Shown here one piece after another: positions 2,043 through 44,375 of a stretch of 55,811 bases of DNA. The stretch is from Chitinophagaceae bacterium. Its GTDB lineage: Bacteria > Bacteroidota > Bacteroidia > Chitinophagales > Chitinophagaceae. The stretch's first letter is position 1; each line of letters starts with the position of its first letter. Location of the stretch: the NCBI GenBank assembly GCA_036376375.1, contig DASVAM010000291.1, forward strand, positions 1 through 55,811, read 5' to 3'. Below the pieces are notes generated by a model. The model saw only the letters and a program-made list of their open reading frames with translations. It ran no database searches and was not told the DNA's origin. The position numbers were made by a program, and so were the translations under genes.

Positions 2043-2088
2043 ATTCTTTTTGACTTACCTGGCCTCCAGAACCTAAGTAAAAATAGAA

Positions 2089-7933: not shown

Positions 7934-7934
7934 A

Positions 7935-10709
7935 ATGATGAAGAGAAGACAATCAATATTGATTTTAATTCTGCTGATCTCAAAGTTGATTCCAGCGCAA
8001 GTGAATATCGGCAGCCTACGCTGTGAAATGCTCGTGAACCCACTGGGCATTGATATAAGAGAACCACGGCTTAGCTGGCAATTAAATTCTTCCGTAAGAA
8101 ATGTCCAGCAAATAGCTTATGAGATCATTGTTGCATCAAGCAAAGAGAAATTATCAAACGACGAAGCTGATGTATGGAATTCGGGCAAGATCAACAGTTC
8201 GCAGACTGTGCATATAAAATATGCTGGCAAAGAACTCCAAAGCGGAAAGGCATATTTCTGGCAAGTGAGATCATTCACCAACAAAGGCGAAACTGCATGG
8301 AGTGAGCCTGCATTATGGTCGATGGGATTATTAAATCAGAATGACTGGAAGGCCAAATGGGTAGGCTATGATAAAGCATCGCCATGGGATAGCATTACAC
8401 AATGGTCAAGGTTAAGTGCCAGGTATCTGAGAAAAGAGTTTCAGAGTGCACCAACAGTTAACAGAGCAACAGTTTATATCTCGGGGCTTGGTTTATATGA
8501 GCTATATATAAATGGAAAAAAGATCGGTGACCAGGTATTGGCGCCAAATCCAACTGACTACCGTAAATCTTTTTTATATAATACGCATGATGTAACCGCG
8601 CAAATAAAAAATGGCAACAATGCGATCGCAACAGTCTTGGGTAATGGTCGCTTTTTTACGATGCGACAAAATTATAAACCGCAAAAGCATAACACATTTG
8701 GTTATCCAAAACTGTTACTTCAATTGGAGATCGAATACGCTGATGGTACTAAGAAAATAATTGTGAGTGATGATAGCTGGAAGTTGAGTGTTGATGGCCC
8801 TATAAGAACAAACAATGAATATGACGGTGAAGAGTATGATGCCAACAAAGAATTTCCGGGGTGGGATAATGCAGGATTCAACGATAGCAAATGGATAAAA
8901 CCTGACATAGTATCTCCGCCTCCGGGGAAAATCGTTGCACAGATGAGTGAATCGATGAAAGAAATGCAGTCAATCAAACCAGTTTCAATCAAACCTGTTA
9001 GCAACGGCAAGTACATTCTCGATATGGGACAAAACTTTGCTGGTTGGTTGCAAATAAAAGTACAAGGCAAAAAAGGGCAGAAAGTACAATTGCGTTTTGC
9101 AGAGAGTCTGAAACCTGATGGTGAAATATTTACGGCAAATCTTCGTGATGCAAAGGTGACAGATATATATACGTTAAAAGGAACAGGCATGGAGACATGG
9201 CAACCTTTATTTGTTTATCATGGTTTCCGTTATGTTGAAGTAACCGGGTTTCCGGGAACACCCGCTATCGACAACTTCGAAGGCAAACTTATTTATGATG
9301 CTTTTGAAACGACGGGTTCATTTACCACCTCCAATTCAGTCATTAACGGCATCTATAAAAATGCATGGTGGGGGATCGCATCTAATTATAAAGGCATGCC
9401 AGTTGATTGTCCGCAACGAAATGAACGGCAGCCATGGCTCGGTGACAGGGTAATTGGTGCGATGGGTGAAAGCTATCTTTTTGACAATGCAAAGCTTTAT
9501 GCGAAATGGATGCAGGATATTGAAGAATCACAGACAGAAGAAGGCGCCATACCTGACGTAGCTCCGGCATTCTGGAATTATTATTCAGATGATGTGACAT
9601 GGCCTGCTGCCTTTATTACGATCTCTAATCATTTATACAACCAGTTTGGTGATATTACACCGGTCCAAAAACATTATCCCGCGATGAAGAAATGGATGGA
9701 GTACATGAAGAGCCGGTACATGAAGAATTATATTGTCACCCGTGACAAATATGGTGATTGGTGCATGCCGCCTGAAAGCCCCACATTGATTCATGCAAAA
9801 GATCCTGCAAGACTTACTGATGGGAAACTGATCGCAACGGCATACTATTATAAGATGCTTTCATATATGCACCGTTTTGCGGGACTGCTGAACAAAAAAG
9901 AAGATGCCGTGTCGTTTGGGTTACTAATGGACAACATCAAAACGGCTTTCAATAAGACATTCTACAACGAACACACGAAATATTATTCTAATAATACTGT
10001 AACAGCCAACCTGCTGCCCTTATATTTTGGAATCGTCCCTGATTCTTTAAAACATTCTCTTTTTGAAAAGATCAGGGAAAAGATTGTTGTGGAGAATCGC
10101 GGACATACAAGCACGGGCTTGATAGGCAGTCAATGGGTGATGCGGACATTGAGTGATTATGGGAATACGGACCTGGCTTATCAATTGACCACAAATACAA
10201 CCTATCCGAGCTGGGGTTATATGGTTGCCAATGGAGCAACTACGATCTGGGAATTGTGGAATGGAAATACAGCAGACCCCGGCATGAACAGTCAAAATCA
10301 TGTGATGTTGCTGGGTGATCTGCTGACCTGGTATTATGAGAACCTTGCAGGCATTCGCAGTGATAAAACAGATGTGGCATTTAAGAAGATCATCATGAAA
10401 CCAAACCTTCCGGCAGGTCTTGATTTTGTCAATGCTTCCTATAATAGCATGCATGGTCTGATCAAAAGTCATTGGACCAAAAACATTTCTCAACTTGAAT
10501 GGAACGTTTTGGTCCCAGCAAATACTTCAGCGGTCATTCATATTCCTGCAGGATCATTAAATGACCTGGAGGAATCTGGAATGGAAATTTCTAAAGCGGA
10601 GGGCGTTCAATCAGTAAAATTTGTCGAAAAGGACTCCTATGGAGAAAATGGAGTAGCGATTGTGACGGTTGGTAGTGGTGAATACAAATTTGTTTCAAAG
10701 TCAAAATAG
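7935..10709 (+). CDS. Alpha-L-rhamnosidase, GH78 (secreted)
   Basis: ATG at 7935 follows the upstream stop (7931-7933). Signal peptide 'MMKRRQSILILILLISKLIPAQ'. 'LRCEMLVNPLGID...PRLSW' N-domain, 'VDCPQRNERQPWLGD' catalytic-domain motif, 'TIWELWNG'. Confidence 0.85.
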   Translation: MMKRRQSILILILLISKLIPAQVNIGSLRCEMLVNPLGIDIREPRLSWQLNSSVRNVQQIAYEIIVASSKEKLSNDEADVWNSGKINSSQTVHIKYAGKELQSGKAYFWQVRSFTNKGETAWSEPALWSMGLLNQNDWKAKWVGYDKASPWDSITQWSRLSARYLRKEFQSAPTVNRATVYISGLGLYELYINGKKIGDQVLAPNPTDYRKSFLYNTHDVTAQIKNGNNAIATVLGNGRFFTMRQNYKPQKHNTFGYPKLLLQLEIEYADGTKKIIVSDDSWKLSVDGPIRTNNEYDGEEYDANKEFPGWDNAGFNDSKWIKPDIVSPPPGKIVAQMSESMKEMQSIKPVSIKPVSNGKYILDMGQNFAGWLQIKVQGKKGQKVQLRFAESLKPDGEIFTANLRDAKVTDIYTLKGTGMETWQPLFVYHGFRYVEVTGFPGTPAIDNFEGKLIYDAFETTGSFTTSNSVINGIYKNAWWGIASNYKGMPVDCPQRNERQPWLGDRVIGAMGESYLFDNAKLYAKWMQDIEESQTEEGAIPDVAPAFWNYYSDDVTWPAAFITISNHLYNQFGDITPVQKHYPAMKKWMEYMKSRYMKNYIVTRDKYGDWCMPPESPTLIHAKDPARLTDGKLIATAYYYKMLSYMHRFAGLLNKKEDAVSFGLLMDNIKTAFNKTFYNEHTKYYSNNTVTANLLPLYFGIVPDSLKHSLFEKIREKIVVENRGHTSTGLIGSQWVMRTLSDYGNTDLAYQLTTNTTYPSWGYMVANGATTIWELWNGNTADPGMNSQNHVMLLGDLLTWYYENLAGIRSDKTDVAFKKIIMKPNLPAGLDFVNASYNSMHGLIKSHWTKNISQLEWNVLVPANTSAVIHIPAGSLNDLEESGMEISKAEGVQSVKFVEKDSYGENGVAIVTVGSGEYKFVSKSK

Positions 10710-10715
10710 TGTGGT

Positions 10716-11366
10716 ATGAACAGATTTAAAAAATTAATTAGTGTGGCTACTTTACTTATAATGCAACCTATGGTTGCTCAACAACAGACTATTGATACTG
10801 CTCTTGAAAATAAAGCTGCAGACTGGGTGAGTTCATTGAAATTAAATAATAATGCAAAAGTACAGAGAGTGAGAACCGCGATCGCCACCCATCTTACAGA
10901 AGTAAAGGAATGGCATAACAGTCATCCATACACAATGATACCGGAAGGGATAAATCCAACAACCGGGGGCAAGCTTTCAGAAATGGACAGGCAAATAATA
11001 ATTTGTTCTGCCAAGCCACGATCTATTCATGACAACCTGATGAATGTCTTGAAAACTGAGCTGGACTCAACGCAGGTCGAAGCAATTCTTGATAAGTACA
11101 CAATCGGCAAAGTTGATTTCACGCTAAAAGGGTATAAGGCGATTGTGCCCGACCTTACCGCAAAAGAAGAAACAGAGATCCTGAAGAACTTAAAACAAGC
11201 AAGGGAACAGGCAATAGATTACAAGAACATGAAAGAGATATCCGCCATATTTGAGATCTATAAGACCAAATGCGAGCAGTACCTGAATAACAATGGCCGT
11301 AACTGGCGTCAACTATACAAAGCTTATGTTGATCAAGTAAATGCAGAAAAGAAAGCTCAAAAATAA
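10716..11366 (+). CDS. DUF3826-like secreted protein (accessory protein common in rhamnose/pectin loci)
   Basis: 216 aa. Signal peptide '...MQPMVAQQ'. Helical Lys/Glu-rich protein resembling DUF3826. Sits between the GH78 and the sialidase-fold gene. Confidence 0.55.
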   Translation: MNRFKKLISVATLLIMQPMVAQQQTIDTALENKAADWVSSLKLNNNAKVQRVRTAIATHLTEVKEWHNSHPYTMIPEGINPTTGGKLSEMDRQIIICSAKPRSIHDNLMNVLKTELDSTQVEAILDKYTIGKVDFTLKGYKAIVPDLTAKEETEILKNLKQAREQAIDYKNMKEISAIFEIYKTKCEQYLNNNGRNWRQLYKAYVDQVNAEKKAQK

Positions 11367-11379: not shown

Positions 11380-12501
11380 ATGAAGACCAGGAACGCACTA
11401 CTTATAGCTTTAATTTTTTTATCGGGTGGTGATCTGTTGGCTCAGAAAAATAAATGGAAGAAAGGAATCCTTGTTGATGATTTCATCTATACGGAAGCTT
11501 CCTTTCCGGAGGCTCATGCTGCAACCATAGCTGAAACGCCTGACGGATTGATCGCTGCATGGTTTGGTGGTACCAAAGAAGGGAATAAAGATGTGTGCAT
11601 CTGGATAAGTAAACTTGTAGATAAAAAATGGACGGCTCCCGAAAAAATTGCTGAAGGGAATATCAATGACACATTACGATTTGCCTGTTATAATCCTGTT
11701 TTGTTTTATGCGCCCAATAAGGAATTGTTATTGTTTTATAAGATCGGTCCAAACGTCGCAGGTTGGACAGGCTGGATGATGCGAAGCAAAGACAATGGAA
11801 AAACCTGGAGCAAAAGAGAAGCATTACCTGGCGGTTTTTTAGGACCGATCAAAAACAAGCCTGTAATGTTGAATGGAGTATTACTTTGTCCCAGCAGTAC
11901 GGAGAAAGACGGATGGAAAGCGCATATTGAATATACAAGTGACTATGGAAAAACATGGACAAAAACTGAAGCGATCAATGATCCTAAGATCATCCAGGCA
12001 ATTCAGCCGAGCATTTTGCAATACAACGATGGTAGCCTCCAGATCTTATGCAGGAGTCGTAACACAACTCTCAATGAAAGTTGGAGTAACGATGGCGGTA
12101 AAACATGGAGCGAAATGAAAGCATCTGCTTTGCCCAATAACAATTCAGGAACAGACGCGGTGACTTTGAAAGACGGCCGTCAACTCCTGGTGTATAACCA
12201 TCTGTTGCCAGATTCCACATGGGTAAATGGTAAAGGCCCCCGAACACCATTAAATGTAGCGGTAAGCAGGGATGGAAAAAACTGGGATGCTGTTTTAGTA
12301 GTGGAAGATTCACCAATCAGTCAATATTCTTATCCTTCAGTGATTCAGTCAGCGGACGGCATGGTGCATATTGTTTATACATGGAGAAGACAAAGAATCA
12401 AATATGTAAAGATCGATCCAAAAAAATTGAAAGGTGAACGGATCATTAATAAACAATGGCCGGGAGGACAACGGAAAGGAGGAAAAACTACCGATGACTA
12501 A
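11380..12501 (+). CDS. Asp-box (BNR) sialidase-fold glycosidase, secreted; candidate keto-deoxy-acid (Kdo/Dha-type) hydrolase
   Basis: Four Asp-boxes: 'SKDNGKTWS', 'SDYGKTWT', 'SNDGGKTWS', 'SRDGKNWD'. Signal peptide 'MKTRNALLIALIFLSGGDLLAQ'. No obvious 'RIP' motif. The ATG at 11380 is preferred over 11341, which overlaps the upstream gene. Confidence 0.8.
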   Translation: MKTRNALLIALIFLSGGDLLAQKNKWKKGILVDDFIYTEASFPEAHAATIAETPDGLIAAWFGGTKEGNKDVCIWISKLVDKKWTAPEKIAEGNINDTLRFACYNPVLFYAPNKELLLFYKIGPNVAGWTGWMMRSKDNGKTWSKREALPGGFLGPIKNKPVMLNGVLLCPSSTEKDGWKAHIEYTSDYGKTWTKTEAINDPKIIQAIQPSILQYNDGSLQILCRSRNTTLNESWSNDGGKTWSEMKASALPNNNSGTDAVTLKDGRQLLVYNHLLPDSTWVNGKGPRTPLNVAVSRDGKNWDAVLVVEDSPISQYSYPSVIQSADGMVHIVYTWRRQRIKYVKIDPKKLKGERIINKQWPGGQRKGGKTTDD

Positions 12502-12528
12502 GAATGATGAGTGATGAATAATGACGTG

Positions 12529-12548
12529 CTCCGGGCTATAGCCCGGAG
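12529..12548 (+). terminator. Perfect 8-bp GC-rich hairpin 28 nt after the sialidase-fold gene stop (possible terminator/processing site)
   Basis: 'ctccgggc tata gcccggag'. No U-tract follows, so function is uncertain. Confidence 0.3.
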
Positions 12549-12560
12549 AGAAAGATCAAT

Positions 12561-12678
12561 CATCCTTCGTTTCCTTCAGGATAACAAAAGGTCAGGGTTA
12601 AAAGTTGAATAGCGAACAGAAAGTACAAGAGTGCGACGCAACGGACGATTATGGTAGAACCAAAGCCGGGTACATAAG
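12561..12678 (+). repeat. Intergenic repeat module, copy A (short form lacking a 41-nt internal segment)
   Basis: '...ccttcaggataacaaaag...gaatagcgaacagaaagtacaagagtgcgac|gcaacggacgattatggtag...gggtacataag' aligns with 38616-38768 (+) and the reverse complement of 21130-21239. Confidence 0.7.
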
Positions 12679-12695
12679 AAATATTTATTGCATCA

Positions 12696-14189
12696 ATGAA
12701 GAATTTGCCGTTATTTGATATTGCCATTATAATTGTTTACCTGCTGGCAATGTTGGCTGTTGGTTTCTATTTTGCAAAACGAAATAAGAACAGCGTTCAA
12801 TTCACAAGCGCATCAGGAAAAATTCCCGGATGGGCGATAGGCTTATCGATCTACGCAACTTTTTTAAGCAGCAATACTTTTTTAGGTGTGCCCGGCAAAG
12901 CATTCGGCGGCAACTGGAATGCATTTGTATTTTCTATTTCCATGCCACTGGCAGCATGGGTCGCCTCAAAATATTTTGTGCCATTTTACAGGAGCACAGG
13001 AGAGATATCAGCGTACACACATTTGGAGAAAAGATTTGGTACATGGGCAAGAACCTATGCGGTGATCTGTTTTTTATTGACACAGTTTGCAAGAATGGGC
13101 ACCATCTTCTTCGGAATTGCATTAAGTCTGCAGGCATTGACAGGTTTTTCAATGGCATCCATCATGATCGTGATGGGAATTTGTATCATTATCTATACTG
13201 TTCTTGGAGGAATGGAAGCTGTGATCTGGACAGAAGTCGCACAAGGGGTGATCAAGACATTGGGTGCCTTGTTGATCTTATTCTTAGTGATCAAGGAGAT
13301 CCCGGGAGGTTTTTCTAAAGTGATCGATCTAGCAATGGCTAATGATAAATTAAGCCTCGGAAGTTATTCATTGGATTTTACTGAATCAACTTTCTGGGTG
13401 ATCCTGTTGTATGGTTTCTTTATTAACCTGAATAATTTCGGAATGGATCAGAATTATATTCAACGTTATCATACGGCGTCATCACCAAAACAGGCAAGTA
13501 AATCTGTTTGGTTATGCGTGGCAATGTATGTTCCGGCGTCATTATTGTTTTTTATTATCGGAACTTCTTTGTATGCATTTTATAATGTACACCCGGAATG
13601 GATCGATCCTGCAATATTAAAAGCCCCTGACCAGGTGCTGCCGCATTTCATGGTTACAAAAGTTCCGACTGGCCTGGTTGGTTTGATCGTGTCAGCTTTA
13701 TTATCCGCCGCAATGAGTACGATCAGTTCAAATATGAATGCCTCGGCGACTGTTTTTACAATGGATATTTATAAAAAATATTTCAAACCGGGGATTAATG
13801 ACAAACAACAACTATACATTCTTCATGCAGCAACCGTTGTATTCGGTTTGATCGGGCTCGGAACAGGTCTTGCAATGATCGGTGCAAAAAGCTTACTGGA
13901 TATTTGGTGGGAGCTATCGGGAATCTTTGCAGGAGGTATGCTTGGACTTTTCCTCCTTGGGTTAATAAGTCGTCAAACCAAAAACGCGGAGGCATTGACG
14001 GCAACGATCATCGGCGTCATCGTTATTTTATGGATGACTTTTTCTGATCGTTTAAGTGGTGAATATGCATTTTTGAAAAGCCCGCTACATAAGAATATGA
14101 TCATTGTAGTTGGGACATTGTCGATCTTCCTGGCAGGAGTGGCTCTGACAAAACTCAAGACAAGAAAACCCGTGCCGTTAGAGGTCTGA
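12696..14189 (+). CDS. Sodium:solute symporter (SSS family), paralogue 1
   Basis: 497 aa with about 13 TM segments. 'GWAIGLSIYATFLSSNTFLGVPG' and 'YTHLEKRFG' are typical SSS motifs. Clear paralogue of 19563-21113. Confidence 0.85.
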   Translation: MKNLPLFDIAIIIVYLLAMLAVGFYFAKRNKNSVQFTSASGKIPGWAIGLSIYATFLSSNTFLGVPGKAFGGNWNAFVFSISMPLAAWVASKYFVPFYRSTGEISAYTHLEKRFGTWARTYAVICFLLTQFARMGTIFFGIALSLQALTGFSMASIMIVMGICIIIYTVLGGMEAVIWTEVAQGVIKTLGALLILFLVIKEIPGGFSKVIDLAMANDKLSLGSYSLDFTESTFWVILLYGFFINLNNFGMDQNYIQRYHTASSPKQASKSVWLCVAMYVPASLLFFIIGTSLYAFYNVHPEWIDPAILKAPDQVLPHFMVTKVPTGLVGLIVSALLSAAMSTISSNMNASATVFTMDIYKKYFKPGINDKQQLYILHAATVVFGLIGLGTGLAMIGAKSLLDIWWELSGIFAGGMLGLFLLGLISRQTKNAEALTATIIGVIVILWMTFSDRLSGEYAFLKSPLHKNMIIVVGTLSIFLAGVALTKLKTRKPVPLEV

Positions 14190-14281
14190 AACAGTAAAAT
14201 TGTACAGGATTACAGGCAAAACCTGCATTGTTGACCCTATGTAAAAACCTGAAATTTATACCTTCAAATTAGTCTGTTTTT

Positions 14282-15259
14282 ATGTCCGATAAGAAGTTTG
14301 TGCCGGTTATGATCACTCCTTTCAATCTTAAAGCAAAGGTTGACCTGGATGTGGTGAGTTTGCTTGTTGATTTTTACCTGGCAGCAGGTGTCAAAGGTTT
14401 CTTTGCAAACTGTCTTAGCAGTGAGATGTTCAGCATTACAGAAGATGAGCGGCTGGAACTGACTCAGCACATTGTTCAATATGTAAATGGTCGTGTGCCG
14501 ATCGTTGCAACAGGATCATTTGGGTTAACGATTGAGGATAAAGCCGAGTTCACAAAAAAAATTTATGATACAGGCATTGATGCGGCGATCATGATCACCG
14601 GGCATTTTGCCAAAGTGGACGAGAGGGATGATGTATTGATCGACAATTTTGATAAAATGTTTGGCTTGACGGGTCGTATTCCACTTGGGATGTATGAGTG
14701 TCCTGCGCCATATAAAAGAATTATTTCAGAAGATGTATTCAGGGAATTGCTTTCCGCAAATAGAATGGTCTATCATAAAGACACATCAATCGATCCCCAA
14801 AAAGTAAAAGCCAAGCTTGAAATCCTTAAAGAAACTGGTAATGAACTTGAATTTTATGATGCGCATACTCCTAATGCACATTTCAGTTTATTGAACGGAG
14901 CAAAAGGCATGTCATCTATTTCAGGAAATTTTTATCCGGAAATTATGGTTTGGATGACAGAAAATGCAACTGATCCGGCAAAGCAGGAGGAGGTTGCTTG
15001 GCTGCAGGCTGAGTTAACGAAGGTTGATCCGCTGATCCATATCGCTTACCCGATGAGCGCAAAGTATTTTTTACAGAAAAGGGGGTTGCCTGTAAGGACT
15101 ATCAGCCGTGCAACTGCATTTCAACTGACCCCTGAACAGAGAGAAACGCTGGACAGAATTCATGACAGTTTTTTAGGATGGTGTGAACGCCTCGATATTA
15201 AACCAGTGACAGTTGAAAAACTTACCTCCCACAATAAAGATTATTACCTGGTGAAATGA
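14282..15259 (+). CDS. DapA/NanA-family class I (pyruvate-dependent) aldolase, divergent member
   Basis: 325 aa. 'PVMITPF', 'GMYECPAPY' (equivalent of the YNxP motif) and 'MVYHKDTS' (Schiff-base Lys context). The usual GTTGE motif is replaced by 'NCLSSEMF'. Confidence 0.7.
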   Translation: MSDKKFVPVMITPFNLKAKVDLDVVSLLVDFYLAAGVKGFFANCLSSEMFSITEDERLELTQHIVQYVNGRVPIVATGSFGLTIEDKAEFTKKIYDTGIDAAIMITGHFAKVDERDDVLIDNFDKMFGLTGRIPLGMYECPAPYKRIISEDVFRELLSANRMVYHKDTSIDPQKVKAKLEILKETGNELEFYDAHTPNAHFSLLNGAKGMSSISGNFYPEIMVWMTENATDPAKQEEVAWLQAELTKVDPLIHIAYPMSAKYFLQKRGLPVRTISRATAFQLTPEQRETLDRIHDSFLGWCERLDIKPVTVEKLTSHNKDYYLVK

Positions 15260-15277
15260 ACTTAATGAAGAACAACG

Positions 15278-16429
15278 ATGCCTGACAATCCACTCAAAAT
15301 ATTTTTCCCGGGTAAGCTCGTGTTTGGTAATGGGACCCTGGCTCAATTACCGGATGATATCCTCCAATTAGAACCTAAAAGAGTCTTTATTGCCACGATT
15401 GAGCCGTTAAGATCAGCGATTAGTGAATTTGTAAGTACACTTGAAAGAAACTCGATTGAAGTTTTACTAGATACTTCTATTGTTGCCGAGCCGTCATTTA
15501 GAGATTTTGAAAAATTGATGAAGAAGGTAACTCCATTCGATCCCGATATTATAATTGGCATTGGTGGCGGAAGTGTGCTGGATATTTCAAAGCTTGTGGC
15601 TGCTCAACTGGATAATCAACAAGAGTTAAAAGATTATGTCGGGATTGCTCTATTAAAAAACAGAAAGAAAAAGCTGATCTGTGTTCCGGCAACTTCAGGA
15701 ACTGGAAGCGAAGTTTCTCCCAATGCAATTCTTGTTGACGATTCCGATAACCAGAAGAAGGGTATCATCAGTTCATGGCTCGTTCCCGACATTGTTTACG
15801 TTGACCCTTTACTCACTATATCCGTTCCTCCATTAATTACTGCAACAACAGGATTGGACGCTTTGACCCATTGTCTTGAAGCATATACAAACAAATTTTC
15901 CCAACCATTGATTGATGTCTATGCGTTGGAAGGAATGCGGTTGATCGCTGCCAATATCGTTACGGCAGTGATTGATGGAAGCAATAGGGGGGCACGGGAA
16001 AAAGTTGCAATGGGAAGTTTGCTTGGTGGCTTTTGTTTGGGACCTGTAAATACAGCAGGTGTGCATGCACTTTCATATCCATTGGGCAGCATGTTTCATT
16101 TGGCACATGGATTATCAAATGCTTTATTGTTGCCTAATGTAATGGAATATAATATTCCTGCAGCAACGAAAAAATATGCCGACGTCGCTATAGCCTTAGG
16201 ATGTGAAAGACAAACAGATGATAAAGCAACGGCCTGTGCCGGAGTAAAAAAGTTAAAAGAGTTGATAGGGGCATGTGGTATTCCTGCAACATTGAAAGAA
16301 GTGAATGTGCCCGAATCGGCTATTCCGCAAATAGCCGCCGATGCAATGAAGATCCAACGACTTTTGAAGAATAACCCAAGAGAAATAACAGAAAAAGACG
16401 CGATCGAAATTTATAAAGCTGCCTATTGA
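15278..16429 (+). CDS. Iron-containing (group III) alcohol dehydrogenase, lactaldehyde-reductase-like
   Basis: 383 aa. 'IIGIGGGSVLDISK' NAD-binding motif. Metal-ligand His contexts 'LDALTHCLEAY' and 'GVHALSYPLG...HLAHG'. Confidence 0.85.
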   Translation: MPDNPLKIFFPGKLVFGNGTLAQLPDDILQLEPKRVFIATIEPLRSAISEFVSTLERNSIEVLLDTSIVAEPSFRDFEKLMKKVTPFDPDIIIGIGGGSVLDISKLVAAQLDNQQELKDYVGIALLKNRKKKLICVPATSGTGSEVSPNAILVDDSDNQKKGIISSWLVPDIVYVDPLLTISVPPLITATTGLDALTHCLEAYTNKFSQPLIDVYALEGMRLIAANIVTAVIDGSNRGAREKVAMGSLLGGFCLGPVNTAGVHALSYPLGSMFHLAHGLSNALLLPNVMEYNIPAATKKYADVAIALGCERQTDDKATACAGVKKLKELIGACGIPATLKEVNVPESAIPQIAADAMKIQRLLKNNPREITEKDAIEIYKAAY

Positions 16430-17271
16430 TGAGTGCAAAGAAAAAATATGTTGGGGTGATTGTTCCTGCCGTAACACCACTTACGGAAAAACTCAGGCTG
16501 GATGAGAAGGCTGTACAAAGATTATTTTCCTCATTTTACAAATACAATATTGCACCATTCATTTTAGGCACGACCGGTGAAGCACCCTCTTTGCCCATAC
16601 AGGTGAAAAAAGAGTATGTGCTGGCGGCTGAGAAGAATAAGAAAATGGGCACAAAACTTTATGCAGGCATCAGCTCAAATGTATTGGCAGAAAGTGTTGA
16701 GTTTGCTGCTTTTTGCGCACTCCACGCAGTGGATGTAGTTGTGGCGACAGTGCCATCCTATTATGCGCTTTCTGAAAAGCAGATGTTCAATTATTTTCTT
16801 GCGCTGGCAAATAACATTTCATTGCCATTGTTTATTTATAATATCCCTGCCACCACGCATATGAGTATTCCGTTGCCCGTGATCGATGAGCTGAGTAAGC
16901 ACAAAAACATTGTGGGAATAAAAGACAGTGAACGAAGTGAAGAAAGAATGCTTGAATCGCTCCGGCTATGGAAAGAAAGGAAAGACTTTCATTATGTACT
17001 TGGCTGGGCGGCGAAAAGCGCCGATGCATTATTAAATGGTGCCGATGGGTTGGTGCCAAGTACGGGTAACCTTTTTCCCGGGGTTTATGCCAACATGATA
17101 AGTGCATTTGAGAAGAATGATAAAGAAAAGATGTACCAAATGCAGCAATTGAGTGACGATTACGGTGCATTATACCAGGCTAACCGAACCCTGGGCGAAA
17201 GCCTGCATGCGTTAAAGCTATTAATGAAAGAAAAAGAAATATGCGAAGAGTTTGTAATGCCGCCATTATAA
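16429..17271 (+). CDS. DapA/NanA-family class I aldolase, short form
   Basis: 'GTTGEAPSL', 'LFIYNIPATT', 'IVGIKDSERS' (catalytic Lys). The ATG at 16429 overlaps the ADH stop (TGATG). A TTG at 16426 is also possible. Confidence 0.8.
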   Translation: MSAKKKYVGVIVPAVTPLTEKLRLDEKAVQRLFSSFYKYNIAPFILGTTGEAPSLPIQVKKEYVLAAEKNKKMGTKLYAGISSNVLAESVEFAAFCALHAVDVVVATVPSYYALSEKQMFNYFLALANNISLPLFIYNIPATTHMSIPLPVIDELSKHKNIVGIKDSERSEERMLESLRLWKERKDFHYVLGWAAKSADALLNGADGLVPSTGNLFPGVYANMISAFEKNDKEKMYQMQQLSDDYGALYQANRTLGESLHALKLLMKEKEICEEFVMPPL

Positions 17272-17287
17272 TGATGAATGATAACTC

Positions 17288-18319
17288 ATGAGTGAAAAGA
17301 AACCGATCATAGCGATAACAATGGGCGATCCGGCTGGTATCGGGCCGGAAATTGCGGTAAAAGCGCTGTTGCAAAATAATATTCATGATATATGCAGACC
17401 ATTGATCGTCGGCGACGCAATTGTCTTCGAACAGATCATTGGTCTTTTAAAATTACCTGCGAAAGTCAATTCCATCAATTCAATTGCAGATGCAAAATTT
17501 GAGTGGGGAACAATTGATGTGTTTGATCTGAACATAACTGACATTAAAAAATTGCAATTCGGAGAGATCGATGCCATGTGCGGGGAAGCAAGTTTCCAGG
17601 CAGTGAAGAAGGCGATCGAATTCGCAATGACCAACGAGGTGGATGGAACGGTAACCGGCCCGATCAATAAAAAATCGATCAACGAGGCAGGACATCATTT
17701 TGCGGGGCACACAGAGATATATGCTCACTATACCGGCACAAAAAAATATGCTATGCTGTTGGTAGAAGATAAGATCAATGTCATTCATGTAAGTACACAT
17801 GTATCCTTACGACAAGCAGTCGATTTAGTAAAAAAGGGAAGAATTGTGCAAGTGATCGAATTGATGGTTGATGGATTGAAACGATTAGGTAAAACAAATT
17901 TGAAAATAGGAGTAGCAGGATTAAATCCACATGCCGGTGATAGTGGATTATTTGGAACAGAAGATGATCAGGAAATTTTACCTGCTGTGCAGGAAGCATT
18001 GAAAATGGGATATGATGTTGAAGGCCCTGTTCCACCTGACACCATGTTCGCTAAAGCAGCAATGGGTGCTTATGGCGGAGTCGTCGCAATGTATCATGAC
18101 CAGGGACATATTCCTTTTAAACTTGCCGGCTTTAAATGGAATGCACAGAAACAACAAATGGATAGTGTGAAAGGAGTGAACATCACTATGGGTTTACCGA
18201 TCATCCGTACATCAGTTGATCATGGAACTGCATTTGAAATTGCAGGCAAAGGGGTTGCAAGTGCCGATGCGATGGTGTTGGCGATTGAAAGCGCAGTTCA
18301 ATTAAGCAAAAATCAATAA
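17288..18319 (+). CDS. PdxA-family NAD-dependent decarboxylating dehydrogenase (PdxA2-like, 4-phospho-tetronate dehydrogenase type)
   Basis: 'IAITMGDPAGIGPEI', 'NPHAGDSGLFG', 'YHDQGHIPFK', 'IRTSVDHGTAF'. Adjacent to a DUF1537 kinase, the known PdxA2 context. Confidence 0.85.
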   Translation: MSEKKPIIAITMGDPAGIGPEIAVKALLQNNIHDICRPLIVGDAIVFEQIIGLLKLPAKVNSINSIADAKFEWGTIDVFDLNITDIKKLQFGEIDAMCGEASFQAVKKAIEFAMTNEVDGTVTGPINKKSINEAGHHFAGHTEIYAHYTGTKKYAMLLVEDKINVIHVSTHVSLRQAVDLVKKGRIVQVIELMVDGLKRLGKTNLKIGVAGLNPHAGDSGLFGTEDDQEILPAVQEALKMGYDVEGPVPPDTMFAKAAMGAYGGVVAMYHDQGHIPFKLAGFKWNAQKQQMDSVKGVNITMGLPIIRTSVDHGTAFEIAGKGVASADAMVLAIESAVQLSKNQ

Positions 18320-18376
18320 TGAGTAATGAATGATGAGTAAAAGGCAGAACTCATCACTCATTACTGATCACTCATT
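18318..18376. repeat. Intercistronic long hairpin ('aatgagt/actcatt' repeat family) filling the gap between the pdxA-like gene and the kinase
   Basis: Left arm 'aatgagtaatgaatgatgagt', loop 'aaaaggcaga', right arm 'actcatcactcattactgatcactcatt'. Single-arm relatives at 12502-12527 and 17268-17295. Confidence 0.6.
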
Positions 18377-18379
18377 TTT

Positions 18380-19477
18380 ATGATCGCAGTAATAGCAGAC
18401 GACTTTACAGGAGCAGCAGAGTTGGCAGGCATCAGCCTGCGATATGGCTTGACCGTAACTGTCTGCCTGCACGATGAAATAACTACAGATACGGATGTGC
18501 TGATCATTTCAACAGACAGCAGGTCTTTGAAAAAAAAGGAAGCTTTAAAAGTTACGGCCAATGCGGTTCGCAAAGCAGTGGAGTTAAAACCGGATCTTAT
18601 TTATAAAAAAATTGATTCGGTTCTGCGTGGCTATGTGATCGATGAGCTGAAAGTTCAAATGGAGTTATGCGGCCTTCAGCGAGCATTTATCATGCCGGCT
18701 AATCCATCATTGGGAAGGACGATTATTGCCGGTAAGTATTTTGTCGATGGCAAACAAGTCAATGAAACAGGATTCGTGGCCGACCCTGAATTCCCGGTTG
18801 TTAACTCTTCTGTCAAAAAGATATTGAATGACGATTCAGTGAAAGTACTGAAGCATACGGAATTCTTACCTGCAAATGGTACTGCGGTTGGTGAAGCAAA
18901 AGATGAAAACGATATCAATGAATGGGCCAGGAAATTGGACGCCGGCTGGGTATTGGCAGGCGCCGGTGATTTTTATAATGCGTTGCTGAGTAGAAGGTAC
19001 AAGCAACAAATGGCACACGGGGTTCACCTGTTGAAACCGCATTTGTATGTATCCGGCACCTCATTCAGGGAACGAAAAGAATTTATAAAAGAGATCGCTA
19101 AAGAATTGAATTGTGTTTCGTATATGGAGGGAGAAGTTGATCGTGCATGGATAGACAAAACTGCAGCCATGATCAAAAAAAATGAGAAAGCTGTTATTGC
19201 CATCACCGAATCGGCGACTTCCGCTTTATCACTAAGAACTGTTATGGCCAAAGCTGTACGAGAGATCCTGCAAAGAAAAACTGTCAAAGAATTATTTATT
19301 GAAGGAGGCTCAACAGCAGCGGCTATTTTACGTGAATTGGATATAAAAAAACTTTCGCCGGTAGATGAATTGCAAAGAGGAGTGGTAAGAATGAAAGTGA
19401 ATGATCTGTTTATAACAGTAAAACCCGGTAGCTATAAGGTACCGGAATTGATACGGGAATTGTATTTATCAGAATAA
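18380..19477 (+). CDS. Four-carbon acid-sugar kinase (DUF1537 family), copy 1
   Basis: N-terminal 'MIAVIADDFTGAAE' motif, 365 aa with two domains. Immediately downstream of the PdxA2-like gene. Confidence 0.8.
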   Translation: MIAVIADDFTGAAELAGISLRYGLTVTVCLHDEITTDTDVLIISTDSRSLKKKEALKVTANAVRKAVELKPDLIYKKIDSVLRGYVIDELKVQMELCGLQRAFIMPANPSLGRTIIAGKYFVDGKQVNETGFVADPEFPVVNSSVKKILNDDSVKVLKHTEFLPANGTAVGEAKDENDINEWARKLDAGWVLAGAGDFYNALLSRRYKQQMAHGVHLLKPHLYVSGTSFRERKEFIKEIAKELNCVSYMEGEVDRAWIDKTAAMIKKNEKAVIAITESATSALSLRTVMAKAVREILQRKTVKELFIEGGSTAAAILRELDIKKLSPVDELQRGVVRMKVNDLFITVKPGSYKVPELIRELYLSE

Positions 19478-19508
19478 TTTAACCGATCCTCTGAGCCGCT
19501 GCGAATCA

Positions 19509-19553
19509 AGGGGCTTAAGCCCCTCTTCTTTGGAGAGGGGTGGGAGGTGAGGT
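19509..19553 (+). repeat. 'GGAGAGGGG..GGGAGGTGAGGT' G-rich element, copy a, ending 9 nt before the ATG
   Basis: 'ggggcttaagcccc' is a perfect palindrome (19510-19523) overlapping the hairpin 'cccctct..agagggg', followed by 'tgggaggtgaggt'. Homologous elements at 35879-35911 and 39467-39497. Confidence 0.7.
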
Positions 19554-19562
19554 TTATAAATT

Positions 19563-21113
19563 ATGAACAGCTTACACTTCATAGATTATCTCATCATCCT
19601 GATCGTATTGGGCATTACTTTGTGGCTCGGCTTTCGTTTCGCTAAAAGACAAAAGACAACAGAGAATTTCTTTCTTTCAAAAGGAAATTTTCCGGCATGG
19701 GCACTCGGTTTGTCATTGCTATCAACACTTATCAGTAGCGTAACATTCTTAGGTTATCCGGCGCAGGGCTACACGAGCAACTGGATATTACTGGTTCAGG
19801 GCCTGATGGTTCCAATCGTTTTATTAGGCGCTATCTGGTTCATCGTTCCGCTGTATAGAAAAGTCATTGGCCTCAGCACTTATGAATATTTTGAAAAACG
19901 ATTTGGCAGATTTGCCCGTTATTATAGTTCATTTTCCTTTGTCATAAGACAGTTTGCAGGAATGGGTACTGTGTTGTTTCTGATAGCAGTTGCCATTCAT
20001 AAAATGACAACCATCGATCCATACATCATCTTAGCGATTGTAGGTGCTGTATTGGTAATCGTGAATTTGAAAGGAGGTATGCAGGCCGTCATCTGGCTCG
20101 ATGTGTTCCAGGGTTTCATGTTATTCGCCAGCGGTATCATTTGCCTTGGCGTCTTATTAATTTCAATTAAAGGTGGTGTACCGGAAGCAATAAAAATTGC
20201 CACGGAAAATAACCGCACAGGATTTGGCCCCTATGATATCGATTTCACACGGCTCACCCTGATCGTGATGATCATCAACGGTGCTTTTTATGCTATTCAG
20301 AAATACGGAACGGACCAAACCGTTGTGCAACGTTATCTCACAGCTAAATCAGATAAGGCAGCAGAGAAAGCATCCTTGCTTGGTATCTCGCTTACCGTTC
20401 CCATCTGGACGATCTTTATGTTCATTGGTACAGTGCTGTTTGTGTTTTATACACAGAATAAATTACCCGAAGGCACAAAAGCCGAAGCGGTGTTTCCTTA
20501 TTTTATCATGACTGAATTACCAACAGGTATTGTTGGGTTTATTGTTGCTGCACTGATCAGTGCGGCGATCTGTAGTCTCAGCGCCGATCTTAATTCACTG
20601 GCTGCAGTCGGCGTGCAGGATTATTACAAAAAGATATTTCCAAACAAAACGGATAAACAATATCTCAAAGCAAGCAAAACAATGGTTGTAATATCTGGTC
20701 TTATCGCTATCGGTATCGGCGCCTTATACCTGCTGACCGGAAATGAAGGCGTGCTCGGTGTCATCTTTACCATCTATGCAATTTTTTCCGGCGGCATTGT
20801 GGGAATTTTCTTGCTCGGACTTTTCAGCGCAAGAGCCAATCGCCAGGGAGTGAACATCGGTATCATTGTTTGCATTTTGTTCACCGCTTATGCGTTTCTT
20901 ACCAGCACACCGATAGGTCTCAAAAATCCAAAACTCTTACTCGATCTTGGAAGCTTTAATTTTACGCATCATAAGCTGATGCTCGGCGTTTATAGCCACC
21001 TCATCGTGATAGTCGTCGGTTATACCGCCAGCTTATTTTATCCAAAACCAGTGCTGGAAGAAAATTTATTATTTAGTAGTTGGAAAAAAAATCGAGATAA
21101 TGAGAACATGTAA
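19563..21113 (+). CDS. Sodium:solute symporter (SSS family), paralogue 2
   Basis: 516 aa, multi-TM. 'AWALGLSLLSTLISSVTFLGYPA' and 'YEYFEKRFG'. Paralogous to 12696-14189. Confidence 0.85.
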   Translation: MNSLHFIDYLIILIVLGITLWLGFRFAKRQKTTENFFLSKGNFPAWALGLSLLSTLISSVTFLGYPAQGYTSNWILLVQGLMVPIVLLGAIWFIVPLYRKVIGLSTYEYFEKRFGRFARYYSSFSFVIRQFAGMGTVLFLIAVAIHKMTTIDPYIILAIVGAVLVIVNLKGGMQAVIWLDVFQGFMLFASGIICLGVLLISIKGGVPEAIKIATENNRTGFGPYDIDFTRLTLIVMIINGAFYAIQKYGTDQTVVQRYLTAKSDKAAEKASLLGISLTVPIWTIFMFIGTVLFVFYTQNKLPEGTKAEAVFPYFIMTELPTGIVGFIVAALISAAICSLSADLNSLAAVGVQDYYKKIFPNKTDKQYLKASKTMVVISGLIAIGIGALYLLTGNEGVLGVIFTIYAIFSGGIVGIFLLGLFSARANRQGVNIGIIVCILFTAYAFLTSTPIGLKNPKLLLDLGSFNFTHHKLMLGVYSHLIVIVVGYTASLFYPKPVLEENLLFSSWKKNRDNENM

Positions 21114-21318: not shown

Positions 21319-23520
21319 GTGAAATCCATTGTGCTCCTTTGTGTCCTGGTGAGTCCGTGGTTCAATTCGACGCAGGCCCAGCTTAATTCGGAAAACAACT
21401 ACCGCAAGCCACTCAAAGAGGTATTGAATGAAATCCAAAAGAGATACGGGGTGGAACTGAAATACGATGAAAAGCTGGTTGCTGGTAAATTTGTGAACTA
21501 TGCCGAATGGCGATACAGAACAGATGTAGAAGTGACTTTAGATAAAGTTCTCTCACCGCTCGATATGGTAGCGAAAAAAGAAAAGGACAAAGTTTACAAG
21601 CTGGGCAGCTATGAATACTACCGCTGGAAAGTTGAAGATGGCTGGGCGGAATTAGATCGAATTGCCGCACAATATAAAAATGTGGAAGAATGGGAGAAGA
21701 GAAAGACAGAACTAAGAAATTGCTTTTTAAAAACCGCACAGCTTGACCATCCGCCTTCGTCACCGGGAACAGCACCGATCAGAGCCAACTTGAGAAAGAT
21801 GAAAGGTTATACGATCGAGAATCTTGCCATAGAAATATTGCCCGGTGTTTGGGTAAATGGTTCACTGTACAAGCCTGAGAAATATAAAGGGAAAATTCCT
21901 GTTGTCTTGCATCCACAGGGACATTGGGATAAACATCGTTACCGTCCCGATTGCCAATACACATCAGCGGCAATTGCAAAGATGGGAGCGATGATATTTA
22001 ATTTCGACATGTTTGCATGGGGTGAATCCATTTTACAATTCAACTATGAAACTCATCGCACGAGTCTTGCATTGACAATGCAGTTGCTTGCGGGTAAGAG
22101 AATTTTGGATTATTTGCTTTCGTTAAAAGATGCCGACACAAATCGTGTGGCGATCGTTGGCGGGAGCGGTGGTGGCACACAAACTGTTTATATGACGGCA
22201 ATCGATGATCGAATAAAAGTTTCTGCACCCGTAGTAAATCTTTCTTCGTATTTCTATGGCGGTTGTCCCTGTGAAAGTGGCGCGAATGTACATGGTTGTA
22301 TAGGGCGAACAGACAACATGGAATTAGCAGCAATGGCTGCACCTCAACCGCAACTGGTAGTGAGTGACGGCGGCGACTGGACAGATCGTATGCCTGAACA
22401 TGATTTTCTTTATCTGAAAAAAATGTATAGCTGGTACGGTAAGCCGGATAATGTGATCAATGTGCATTTGCCCACTGAAAAGCATGATTTTGGTTTTAAC
22501 AAACGCAAAGCAGTGTATGAGTTTTTTGCGAAATATCTTGGACTAAATTTAAAACCGTTACAGGCTTCCGATGGAAGCATTGTTGATACAACGATCAATC
22601 TGGAACCAGAGAAATCATTTTATGTATTTGGCGATAATGGTGAAAAACTACCGGCACATGCTGTAAAAGGTTTTGAAACCCTGGAAAGATTATTTTCAGA
22701 TGAAATTCAAAAGGCAAGGAATAATCAACGTTATAAGATCGGATTAATAGACCTTATGTTGCTGAAAAGACAGAAGTTAGGGGCCATTACTTTAACAAGT
22801 CAGTTAAACGCAGACGGGGTGGAAGTGGATATGGGTGGCCTTGGAAACAGACCCACATTCGATAATCAATTATTGATCGACTCGGTACGCAACCAGTTCC
22901 TAAAAACCGCGAAGGAAAACGATGTCGAAATATTTTCTTTAGCAATGACGGGTTACTACGCCCAATCTTTTTGCGGACGGGAAGAATACAAACGAAGCAT
23001 AGAAGATTGTATAAAAACAATGAAGCTAATGAATGTGAAGACTGCTTTTCTCCCGCTGGGCGTCCAATGTGATTTGAGAAAAAAACCGGAAGTAAGAGAT
23101 TCGGTAGTGGCAAGATTAAAGGTTGCTGGCAAGATGGCTGAAGCTGCTAATGTGTTGATTGGCATAGAAACAGCATTATCTGCTAAAGAAGAAGTGCAAC
23201 TCTTAAAAGATATTGGTTCACCCGCGATAAAGGTCTATTTCAATTTCTCCAATCCATTGAAGGAGGGCAGAGACCTGATAAGTGAATTAAAAGTATTGGG
23301 AAAGGATCGTATTTGTATGATACACGCAACTAACAAAGACAGTGTGTGGCTGGAGAACGACCCGCAGATAGATATGTACAAAGTGAAAAGGACGCTGGAT
23401 GAAATGGGTTGGAGCGGTTGGTTGGTGATCGAACGCAGTCGCGATGCCAAAAAGTCTTCTGATACAAAATATAATTATGGCGCCAATACGGCTTACTTGA
23501 AAAAAGTTTTTCAGGAATGA
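21319..23520 (+). CDS. Secreted two-domain fusion: alpha/beta-hydrolase (acetyl-xylan-esterase/dienelactone-hydrolase-like) + xylose-isomerase-like TIM-barrel (sugar phosphate isomerase/epimerase family)
   Basis: Proposed GTG start at 21319 gives signal peptide 'MKSIVLLCVLVSPWFNSTQAQ'. Esterase part has 'VAIVGGSGGGTQTV' (GxSxG nucleophile elbow) and 'HDFGF'. C-terminal ~270 aa ('YKIGLIDLMLLK...GADGVEVDMGG...IGIETA...GWLVIE') resemble AP-endonuclease-2/xylose-isomerase TIM barrels. The 21100-21318 part of the tracked ORF is repeat DNA. Confidence 0.6.
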   Translation: MKSIVLLCVLVSPWFNSTQAQLNSENNYRKPLKEVLNEIQKRYGVELKYDEKLVAGKFVNYAEWRYRTDVEVTLDKVLSPLDMVAKKEKDKVYKLGSYEYYRWKVEDGWAELDRIAAQYKNVEEWEKRKTELRNCFLKTAQLDHPPSSPGTAPIRANLRKMKGYTIENLAIEILPGVWVNGSLYKPEKYKGKIPVVLHPQGHWDKHRYRPDCQYTSAAIAKMGAMIFNFDMFAWGESILQFNYETHRTSLALTMQLLAGKRILDYLLSLKDADTNRVAIVGGSGGGTQTVYMTAIDDRIKVSAPVVNLSSYFYGGCPCESGANVHGCIGRTDNMELAAMAAPQPQLVVSDGGDWTDRMPEHDFLYLKKMYSWYGKPDNVINVHLPTEKHDFGFNKRKAVYEFFAKYLGLNLKPLQASDGSIVDTTINLEPEKSFYVFGDNGEKLPAHAVKGFETLERLFSDEIQKARNNQRYKIGLIDLMLLKRQKLGAITLTSQLNADGVEVDMGGLGNRPTFDNQLLIDSVRNQFLKTAKENDVEIFSLAMTGYYAQSFCGREEYKRSIEDCIKTMKLMNVKTAFLPLGVQCDLRKKPEVRDSVVARLKVAGKMAEAANVLIGIETALSAKEEVQLLKDIGSPAIKVYFNFSNPLKEGRDLISELKVLGKDRICMIHATNKDSVWLENDPQIDMYKVKRTLDEMGWSGWLVIERSRDAKKSSDTKYNYGANTAYLKKVFQE

Positions 23521-33749: not shown

Positions 33750-33754
33750 TGTGT

Positions 33755-38526: not shown

Positions 38527-38536
38527 GAAATAAAAA

Positions 38537-38599: not shown

Positions 38600-38615
38600 G
38601 TAAAATTTGAACAGT

Positions 38616-38768: not shown

Positions 38769-38793
38769 AAACTAAAAACATTCAATATAAAAC

Positions 38794-39456: not shown

Positions 39457-39466
39457 CCCGACCATC

Positions 39467-40862: not shown

Positions 40863-44375
<3,513 letters not shown>

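Follow-up and report, generated by a model that had tools for sequence, protein, structure and literature searches.

Here we analyse a 55.8-kb stretch of Chitinophagaceae DNA (contig DASVAM010000291.1, positions 1 to 55,811; hereafter the window) and a block of eight co-directional plus-strand genes at 11380-21113, part of which may encode a catabolic route for Dha (3-deoxy-D-lyxo-hept-2-ulosaric acid), an acidic sugar of the plant polysaccharide rhamnogalacturonan II (RG-II). Genes were called from a listing of open reading frames (ORFs) and from Pfam and NCBIfam scans, and these bear out the co-directional arrangement, families, coordinates and gaps given in a preliminary description of the locus. 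The first three genes are referred to below as the accessory module, the other five as the core cassette:

11380-12501, + strand: secreted sialidase-fold hydrolase resembling glycoside hydrolase family 33 (GH33), here called the BNR protein (BNR_2, E = 2.5e-91; signal peptide)
12696-14189, + strand: SSS-family symporter 1, accessory module (SSF, E = 5e-49)
14282-15259, + strand: aldolase 1, a divergent class I member of the dihydrodipicolinate synthase/N-acetylneuraminate lyase (DHDPS/NAL) family, accessory module (DHDPS, 95 bits)
15278-16429, + strand: iron-dependent alcohol dehydrogenase (Fe-ADH), core cassette (Fe-ADH and ADH_Fe_C)
16426/16429-17271, + strand: aldolase 2, an NAL-like class I pyruvate aldolase, core cassette (DHDPS, 112 bits)
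17288-18319, + strand: PdxA2-like dehydrogenase, core cassette (PdxA, E = 4e-101)
18380-19477, + strand: short-form DUF1537 kinase of 365 aa, core cassette (SBD_N and partial NBD_C)
19563-21113, + strand: SSS-family symporter 2, core cassette (SSF)

The intergenic gaps are, in gene order, 194, 92, 18, -4 (-1 if aldolase 2 is read from the ATG at 16429), 16, 60 and 85 nt. For the BNR gene the ORF call opens at 11341, and the start that yields the signal peptide (MKTRNALL...) lies at 11380. A GC-rich hairpin, AGGGGCTTAAGCCCCT, sits at 19509-19524 inside the 85-nt gap that separates the kinase gene from symporter 2, where it might act as an internal attenuator or mark a site of RNA processing. 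The scan for sigma-70 promoters and terminators as a whole stays at background: its counts match those of shuffled sequence, and it marks no operon boundaries.

To see which of these genes travel together, we assembled 167 related loci: 80 genome loci reached via the kinase, 80 metagenome loci reached via distant kinases, and 7 reached via GH143. The window proteins were mapped onto the 160 kinase-derived loci by tblastn. We find that the block is made of two modules and is not one eight-gene unit. The core order (Fe-ADH, aldolase 2, PdxA, kinase, symporter 2) recurs in the 160 loci wherever the contig reaches, i.e. in essentially every locus with enough flank; the Fe-ADH gene is always the first of the cassette, and aldolase 2 is found in all full-flank loci. 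Five further loci, reached independently through a GH143 protein, also carry the core enzyme order. The cassette arrangement is no chance juxtaposition, and it is conserved across several bacterial phyla. Distant loci from Bacteroidales and Catalimonadaceae have the cassette as a unit of its own, preceded by a LacI-type regulator and beside SusC/SusD genes. Among the carriers that can be cultivated are Ferruginibacter sp. SUN106, Niastella soli, Larkinella and Niabella.

The accessory genes, by contrast, occur together mainly in Chitinophagaceae-type loci, always placed between GH78/BNR and the Fe-ADH gene, with symporter 1, which is almost restricted to such loci, between BNR and aldolase 1. 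BNR is present in 38 of 44 loci with aldolase 1, compared with 15 of 44 without it; loci of the Niastella, Larkinella and Spirosoma types lack a second aldolase, and there BNR lies right next to the Fe-ADH gene. Given the constant core order and this accessory distribution, Fe-ADH, kinase and PdxA belong with aldolase 2 and not with aldolase 1. Of the single eight-gene block that had been proposed, the conserved co-occurrence stands, whereas the single unit gives way to a core found in essentially every locus and an accessory part found mainly in Chitinophagaceae-type loci. The gene-neighbourhood check likewise finds the four enzymes and carrier conserved together, but not aldolase 1 and the BNR protein as constant partners.

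The link between the cassette and Dha comes from GH143. To our knowledge, BT1020 of Bacteroides thetaiotaomicron is the only characterised member of this family and the only characterised Dha hydrolase. The activity is placed in the BT1020 N-terminus in PMC13501991. Larkinella and Spirosoma loci encode, two genes 5' of BNR, a 616-aa PF24067 protein (BT_1020-like propeller, E = 8e-127), and the PF24067 protein at L048:2701-4551 matches BT1020 (5mqr) residues 24-612 at E = 1.7e-231. Of the 160 loci, 15 have a GH143 gene no more than 10 kb from the cassette; 8 of the 15 are distant loci without a BNR homologue, and these include one TARA ocean contig as well as a unit of the order SusC-SusD-GH143-LacI-cassette. 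GH143 genes right next to the cassette are found in Cytophagales, Bacteroidales, Flavobacteriaceae, Ignavibacteriota and KSB1, and the four cassette enzymes adjoin BT1020 orthologues in at least three phyla.

A search with a GH143 profile points the same way. Among seven taxonomically spread contigs, five carry the four enzymes on the same strand with GH143 immediately 3', a fraction that is inflated because the profile was built from cassette-linked proteins. Three of the five come from genomes, of Melioribacteraceae, KSB1 and Flavobacteriaceae, and two from other contigs. No Chitinophagaceae is named among the best 120 GH143 matches listed. The GH143 operons run sulfatase, Fe-ADH, DHDPS, PdxA, DUF1537, SSF or GntP, GH143, and their proteins are 33-61% identical to those of the window. 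The KSB1 locus (L162) has a GntP-family acid-sugar permease instead of the SSS carrier. The BNR_2 proteins of the Melioribacteraceae and KSB1 operons (L161, L162) are not closely related to the window BNR protein. The conservation across phyla is itself real.

Other features of the GH143 neighbourhoods deserve mention. Six loci (L161, L162, L165, L166, L167 and L135), from genomes and metagenomes of marine and other environments in Bacteroidota, Ignavibacteriota and KSB1, share an operon with a TonB receptor, a sulfatase, the four enzymes, SSF/GntP, GH143, a metallophosphoesterase, an FAA-hydrolase-family protein and Laminin_G_3; its make-up suggests a sulfated glycan with a Dha-like sugar. 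A Planctomycetota contig (L164, 7994-21998) has six tandem GH143-like paralogues, some with PA14, and no cassette. Large DUF6298 proteins adjoin GH143 or the LacI-cassette unit (L048 59-2704, L078 2375-5560, L094 14370-17546) and could represent an uncharacterised glycosidase for the same side chain. We rejected them as the GH142 half of BT1020, given that they have no match in the PDB, 5mqr included.

Judged in silico from family membership, chemistry and gene context, the five-gene core cassette probably imports Dha and converts it to pyruvate, dihydroxyacetone phosphate (DHAP) and CO2. In the window's genome, Dha is assumed to be freed by a GH143 enzyme encoded elsewhere. Symporter 2 would import free Dha, and aldolase 2 would cut it between C3 and C4 by a Schiff-base retro-aldol reaction into pyruvate and D-threuronate, a C4 aldehydo-acid. 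The Fe-ADH would reduce D-threuronate with NAD(P)H to D-threonate, the short DUF1537 kinase would convert this to 4-phospho-D-threonate, and the PdxA2-like enzyme would oxidise C3 and decarboxylate the product to DHAP and CO2. The net reaction would be Dha + ATP to pyruvate + DHAP + CO2, with one ATP spent, and the route would be redox-neutral because PdxA2 regenerates the reducing equivalent that the Fe-ADH uses.

The stereochemistry was derived by hand: D-lyxo means C4 left, C5 left and C6 right, such that after C3-C4 cleavage and reduction the C4 acid would have OH-2 left and OH-3 right, i.e. D-threonate. The preliminary description had reached D-threonate by the same book-keeping, which holds on this re-derivation. 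Its more general proposal, a 2-keto-3-deoxy acid route via class I aldolase, Fe-ADH, tetronate kinase and PdxA2 to DHAP, is supported in silico by synteny, GH143 adjacency and the enzyme matches, and it withstood the checks applied.

Among the cassette enzymes, the PdxA homologue matches Salmonella PdxA2 (2hi1) at E = 6e-85 and D-threonate 4-phosphate dehydrogenase (6e85) at 9e-83, while its match to E. coli PdxA is much weaker (1.5e-50). It is about 50% identical to PdxA2, judged by eye from the alignment, and keeps the GHTE, STH, NPHAG, YHDQGH, VNIT and IRTSVDHGTA motifs. We take the PdxA His ligands, together with GHTE, K, N (VNIT) and R (IRTS), to be catalytic, substrate-binding or phosphate-binding positions. 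Between the substrate-binding Lys and VNIT, at residues ~284-294, the protein also has an insertion of 11 residues (WNAQKQQMDSV) that none of the solved PdxA and PdxA2 structures shares.

The kinase matches SBD_N at E = 7e-35 (profile positions 1-161 of 230) and NBD_C at E = 1e-7 (80-161 of 168). D-threonate kinase (NF047819) is its best NCBIfam match, at 138 bits, followed by 3-oxo-tetronate kinase at 75 bits. An N-terminal ADDFTGA and a C-terminal EGGSTA are invariant in its subfamily, and it is 22% identical to an OiaK-like paralogue at 37204. The best curated relatives of the Fe-ADH, all below cut-off, include lactaldehyde, sulfoacetaldehyde and 4-hydroxybutyrate (succinic semialdehyde) reductases; as relatives that reduce anionic aldehydes or aldehydo-acids, e.g. 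succinic semialdehyde, they would fit the proposed step.

Aldolase 2 has GTTGE, Y138-N-x-P and K166-D-S-E-R170 as family-invariant motifs, and K/R197 in 62 of 75 members. The extra basic residues (R170, K/R197) would suit a dicarboxylate, which is suggestive only. The enzyme is related to solved DapA and NAL structures only at about the 30% level, and it is not a DapA, since an NAL-like YNIPATT stands in for the DapA Arg that binds aspartate semialdehyde, which we take to lie at this position. A housekeeping DapA was rejected on these and other grounds: B. thetaiotaomicron DapA (4xky) matches at only E = 1e-32, the DapA-type Arg is missing, and the gene is locked in the cassette. A truncated pseudogene was also rejected for this 281-aa protein, given that its homologues come in short (~280 aa) and long (~300-310 aa) forms. 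Aldolase 1 has family-invariant YHK166DTS and Y138ECP, with an atypical CLSSE where GTTGE is expected. In both enzymes K166 is the Schiff-base Lys and Y138 the catalytic Tyr, and GTTGE of aldolase 2 corresponds to the family's carboxylate-binding G-x-T-G-E motif.

The best solved relative of symporter 2 is 5nv9 (E = 4.4e-72; next match 1.6e-42), presumably the Proteus mirabilis sialic-acid symporter SiaT, and symporter 1 is 37% identical to symporter 2. Neither aldolase, nor the Fe-ADH or the kinase, reaches a curated NCBIfam equivalog cut-off.

The block is bordered on the same strand by three further genes:

7914-10709, + strand: GH78 alpha-L-rhamnosidase (five GH78 Pfam domains, all found; rhamnosidase NCBIfam matches)
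10716-11366, + strand: DUF3826 protein between GH78 and BNR (PF12875, E = 1e-70)
21319-23520, + strand: esterase-like alpha/beta-hydrolase domain fused to a xylose-isomerase-like TIM barrel, probably secreted (AP_endonuc_2 and weak AXE1)

The last of these trails the cassette in 23 of 23 clade A loci with full flanks; the ORF listing starts it at 21100, probably in error, since translation from the GTG at 21319 yields a signal peptide. The first two bear on the function of the BNR protein. The AlphaFold2 model of that protein (pLDDT 82.8) shows the six-bladed beta-propeller of sialidases and retrieves nearly only GH33 sialidases among its top 50 Foldseek hits (TM-score ~0.65-0.72, ~15% identity), and in sequence it is only remotely like solved sialidases (E ~1e-6). 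It has strict Asp-boxes at residues 136 and 236 and a looser one at 186. In a profile alignment to NanB, which is approximate and made with no superposition, an invariant R225 falls at the second Arg and an invariant Q209 at the position that presumably holds the catalytic Glu of sialidases. By eye, and on the same approximate alignment, R288 corresponds to the third Arg and Y316/Y318 to the Tyr, with H46 at the expected first Arg, and the arginine triad may be non-canonical. The protein has no match to PF24067 or to 5mqr (BT1020), which also lies outside the Foldseek top 50; a GH143 Dha hydrolase was rejected on these grounds and on its GH33-type fold.

In 22 of 45 loci the BNR protein is fused in frame to a GH78 rhamnosidase, with the frame running 460-930 codons upstream. 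For example, L044:3025-6822 encodes 1265 aa with rhamnosidase models on residues 16-918, and fused GH78-BNR homologues turn up in the protein search too. The DUF3826 gene is found only in loci where GH78 and BNR are separate genes. [quoted passage not shown] Because a GH33 fold coupled to GH78 is the BT1013 architecture, the BNR protein is best read as a candidate Kdo hydrolase of the BT1013 C-terminal type, likened to it by fold and architecture. The fusion in about half of the related loci reproduces that architecture, whereas in the window the two are separate genes with the DUF3826 gene between them. The GH78 at 7914-10709 is the likely partner of the BNR protein on RG-II chain C (Rha-alpha1,5-Kdo). 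Of the sialidase-fold hydrolase for Dha and/or Kdo that had been put forward, the fold and secretion thus remain, together with GH33 likeness, while GH143 drops out. The window ORFs scanned hold no NanK, NanE or NagA/NagB, and the nan-type families that a cluster for N-acetylneuraminic acid would bring are absent from them.

Acting after the adjacent GH78, the GH33-like hydrolase would free Kdo from RG-II chain C, symporter 1 would import it, and aldolase 1 would cleave it to pyruvate and D-arabinose. That the accessory module (11380-15259) handles Kdo in this way is a tentative reading, which we place somewhat short of even. Aldolase 1, found with symporter 1 and BNR, is the Kdo candidate because aldolase 2 always travels with Fe-ADH, PdxA and kinase; this reverses the earlier, tentative assignment of Kdo to the second aldolase.

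Several known systems resemble parts of the block. Zhang and colleagues reportedly showed in PNAS in 2016 that DtnK, a DUF1537 kinase, and PdxA2, a decarboxylating 4-phospho-D-threonate dehydrogenase, take D-threonate to DHAP and CO2. The cassette shares with that pathway the adjacent kinase and PdxA2-like pair, the last two proposed steps and the products DHAP and CO2, but its kinase is short (~365 aa), divergent and below the curated cut-off. Because the Fe-ADH and aldolase genes always precede the pair and a SiaT-like symporter follows it, the tetronate would be made in the cell from a larger acid, and not imported. The sialic-acid nan system (GH33, SiaT/NanT, NanA) has the same first three steps and protein families; the block differs in that it is without NanK, NanE, NagA and NagB, in that the aldehyde would go to Fe-ADH, kinase and PdxA2, and in a context of pectin or algal glycans and not host glycans. 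The GarL/GarR/GarK route for glucarate and galactarate follows the same logic, a keto-deoxy aldaric acid being split into pyruvate and an aldehydo-acid that is reduced and phosphorylated. Dha is one carbon longer (C7) than the Gar substrate, which is why the product would be a tetronate and one more step, an oxidative decarboxylation, would be needed. The Gar enzymes come from other families throughout: GarL is an aldolase of class II, GarR a beta-hydroxyacid dehydrogenase and GarK a member of the glycerate kinase family.

As for RG-II degraders, B. thetaiotaomicron BT1020 joins a GH143 Dha hydrolase to GH142, and orthologues of its N-terminal domain flank the cassette in other lineages. Compared with the BT1013/BT1020 enzymes, window-type loci add downstream catabolic genes, and the window has no GH143. 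According to a 2026 preprint on RG-II, B. thetaiotaomicron does not consume Kdo but secretes it. The D-apionate pathway (ApnO, OiaK, OiaC/OiaX) also has a PdxA-family gene next to a DUF1537 kinase in an RG-II sugar locus; the cassette, by contrast, is without a RuBisCO-like partner in nearly all loci, and its PdxA resembles PdxA2, which uses phosphate esters.

The rest of the window identifies it as a genuine RG-II locus, on the evidence of its gene content. The product of 33749-35809 exceeds the cut-off of the aceric-acid hydrolase equivalog (1166 vs 950 bits), 44347-45537 is a GH137 of the BT0996 N-terminal type (E = 4e-160), and there are genes for GH141, GH106, two GH78, two GH2 and DUF3826. 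Composition is uniform (GC ~41%), and close homologues are found in Chitinophagaceae, e.g. Ferruginibacter. Within 40872-45537, a LacZ-type GH2 (909 bits) comes first and overlaps by 29 nt with the stand-alone GH137; in BT0996 of B. thetaiotaomicron GH137 is fused to a GH2 glucuronidase, whereas here the two are separate, in reversed order and with another GH2 type. The window begins inside a unit at 22-3588 with a sugar-type ABC transporter (ATPase and permease) and a GlpK-like FGGY kinase (585 bits to the GlpK subfamily), and in one related locus (L150) the same genes lie directly 3' of the cassette. This unit could be a sink for a neutral product, e.g. D-arabinose or a derived polyol.

Four further genes lie at 35912-40814: an OiaX-like RuBisCO-like gene (510 bits), an OiaK-like DUF1537 kinase (394 bits), an Asp/Glu-racemase-family gene and a PanS/SBF-type carrier. 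In L050 and L101 the same four genes are directly 5' of the cassette. In the window the OiaX-like and OiaK-like genes, which belong to apiose catabolism, occupy 35912-38526, with the RuBisCO-like gene 16 kb from the PdxA-kinase pair, and there is no PdxA-family apionate oxidoisomerase (ApnO) beside them. For this module, either ApnO is encoded elsewhere, or the PdxA at 17288 is shared, or a different branched acid is handled.

A number of points weigh against Dha catabolism by the cassette. The PdxA homologue stays under the cut-off for D-threonate-4-phosphate dehydrogenase (NF002891; 324 vs 583 bits), and the kinase, with its 138 bits, under the 450-bit cut-off for D-threonate kinase; the latter is an unusual short form, from a conserved subfamily of ~360-390 aa. 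Sequence does not separate threonate from erythronate or another acid sugar, nor can aldolase specificity be read from it. A tblastn search with a true GH143 orthologue finds no GH143 in the 55.8-kb window, and all 43 of the closest loci (clade A) are without one up to 10 kb from the cassette. The only ulosonic-acid hydrolase adjacent to the cassette in the window is of the Kdo type. The GH143-linked operons outside RG-II loci carry sulfatases, which imply that the natural substrate of those lineages is not RG-II, and the inflated share of GH143 contigs with a cassette belongs here as well. Finally, OiaK/OiaX-like genes normally need a PdxA-family apionate oxidoisomerase, and the PdxA at 17288 is the sole PdxA-family match among the scanned plus-strand ORFs of at least 150 aa.

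There are other explanations. The core cassette might catabolise Kdo, alone or together with Dha, either by way of Kdo-8-phosphate, formed by the kinase, from which aldolase 2 would give pyruvate and arabinose-5-phosphate, or through a promiscuous aldolase 2. The hydrolase directly upstream in the window and in clade A and B loci is indeed of the GH33/BT1013 type, BNR adjoins Fe-ADH in the Niastella-, Larkinella- and Spirosoma-type loci where a second aldolase is missing, and BNR_2 proteins are also present in the Melioribacteraceae and KSB1 operons. However, Kdo cleavage gives neutral D-arabinose and leaves no chemically sensible role for an Fe-ADH and a PdxA2-type decarboxylating dehydrogenase; many cassettes have GH143 but no BNR homologue, the BNR_2 proteins of L161 and L162 are distant from that of the window, and BNR-bearing lineages often gained a dedicated second aldolase beside BNR. 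We consider Kdo as the cassette's substrate unlikely. Much the same low weight goes to another acidic sugar set free by GH143-family or neighbouring enzymes, such as aceric acid or an algal ulosaric acid. Aceric acid would be reduced, phosphorylated and oxidatively decarboxylated to a 5-deoxypentulose phosphate that undergoes aldol cleavage. We know of no catabolic route for this sugar, its hydrolase is encoded in the window, and GH127 lies 3' of the cassette in Larkinella loci; the sulfatase loci from marine and other environments point beyond RG-II, and GH143 has a single characterised member. Yet DHDPS/NAL enzymes take pyruvate-type 2-keto acids and not DHAP-type donors, cassettes exist without GH127 nearby, and the closest solved relative of symporter 2, presumably a sialic-acid carrier, suits a 2-keto-3-deoxy acid. 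A C4-specific kinase and dehydrogenase combined with a pyruvate aldolase points to a C7 keto-deoxy diacid.

Two more explanations divide the enzymes differently, and we hold both to be very improbable. In a mixed block, one aldolase and the Fe-ADH would act as 2-keto-3-deoxy-L-rhamnonate/fuconate aldolase and lactaldehyde reductase, next to an unrelated kinase/PdxA2 pair for D-threonate/D-erythronate or 4-hydroxythreonine salvage. The many rhamnosidases of the window would agree with this, as would a salvage role of DUF1537/PdxA2 pairs, as cited in PMC9997740. The Fe-ADH scores 234 bits to lactaldehyde reductase, but against a cut-off of 523 bits, and the cassette contains no rhamnose dehydrogenase, lactonase or rhamnonate dehydratase. 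The rhamnonate-aldolase/lactaldehyde-reductase alternative, raised in the preliminary description, fails because the four enzymes and transporter are conserved in the same order across phyla, also in loci where no rhamnosidase is detected. The remaining explanation makes the PdxA at 17288 the D-apionate oxidoisomerase, with the kinase acting on an apiose-derived acid, in the service of the OiaK/OiaX-like genes. Carter and colleagues are said to have placed ApnO in the PdxA family in 2018. Beyond the OiaX-like and OiaK-like genes of the window, which has no other PdxA-family gene among its scanned ORFs, and the RuBisCO-like module directly 5' of the cassette in L050 and L101, ApnO-OiaK-OiaX clusters are mentioned in PMC12994016. 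The assignment is unlikely: just 2 of 160 loci have a RuBisCO-like gene 10 kb or less from the cassette, and the cross-phylum operons have none; the PdxA homologue, ~50% identical to PdxA2, keeps what we take to be the phosphate-binding motifs, and aldolase 2 and Fe-ADH would be left without a role. Dha stays the preferred substrate of the core cassette.

Among plant polysaccharides RG-II often counts as the most complex, and its depolymerisation by Bacteroides has been mapped enzyme by enzyme. The fate of its acids Dha and Kdo is unmapped. A search of ~8.3 million full texts found no paper that relevantly links Dha with an aldolase, catabolism or threonate, in agreement with the earlier statement that no Dha pathway had been described. 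In the same literature, Kdo aldolase (EC 4.1.2.23) appears only as an activity. The 2026 RG-II preprint gives as unconfirmed the pathways by which other gut microbes would use secreted Kdo.

The cassette would be a new upstream branch that feeds a known pathway, and it is built from known families. We put at about even the chance that the cross-phylum operon of Bacteroidota, Ignavibacteriota and KSB1 is the first Dha catabolic pathway, running via D-threuronate and D-threonate. If so, it would be a concrete four-enzyme route from a pectin sugar to central metabolites and would provide a physiological source of D-threonate for the known DtnK/PdxA2 pathway, which would explain D-threonate kinase and PdxA2 in organisms without an obvious source of that acid. 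It would also tell what a large subfamily of short-form DUF1537 proteins and a new family of NAL-like aldolases do, and annotate thousands of genes now named "four-carbon acid sugar kinase", "dihydrodipicolinate synthase family" or "PdxA". Aldolase 1 of Chitinophagaceae, if its proposed role is true, would be the first gene for the orphan Kdo aldolase (EC 4.1.2.23). The sulfatase link would imply that a hitherto unrecognised Dha-containing sulfated glycan, e.g. of green-algal cell coverings, serves as a bacterial carbon source, and the cassette would point to cross-feeding niches in which soil, gut and marine bacteria use sugars that B. thetaiotaomicron secretes.

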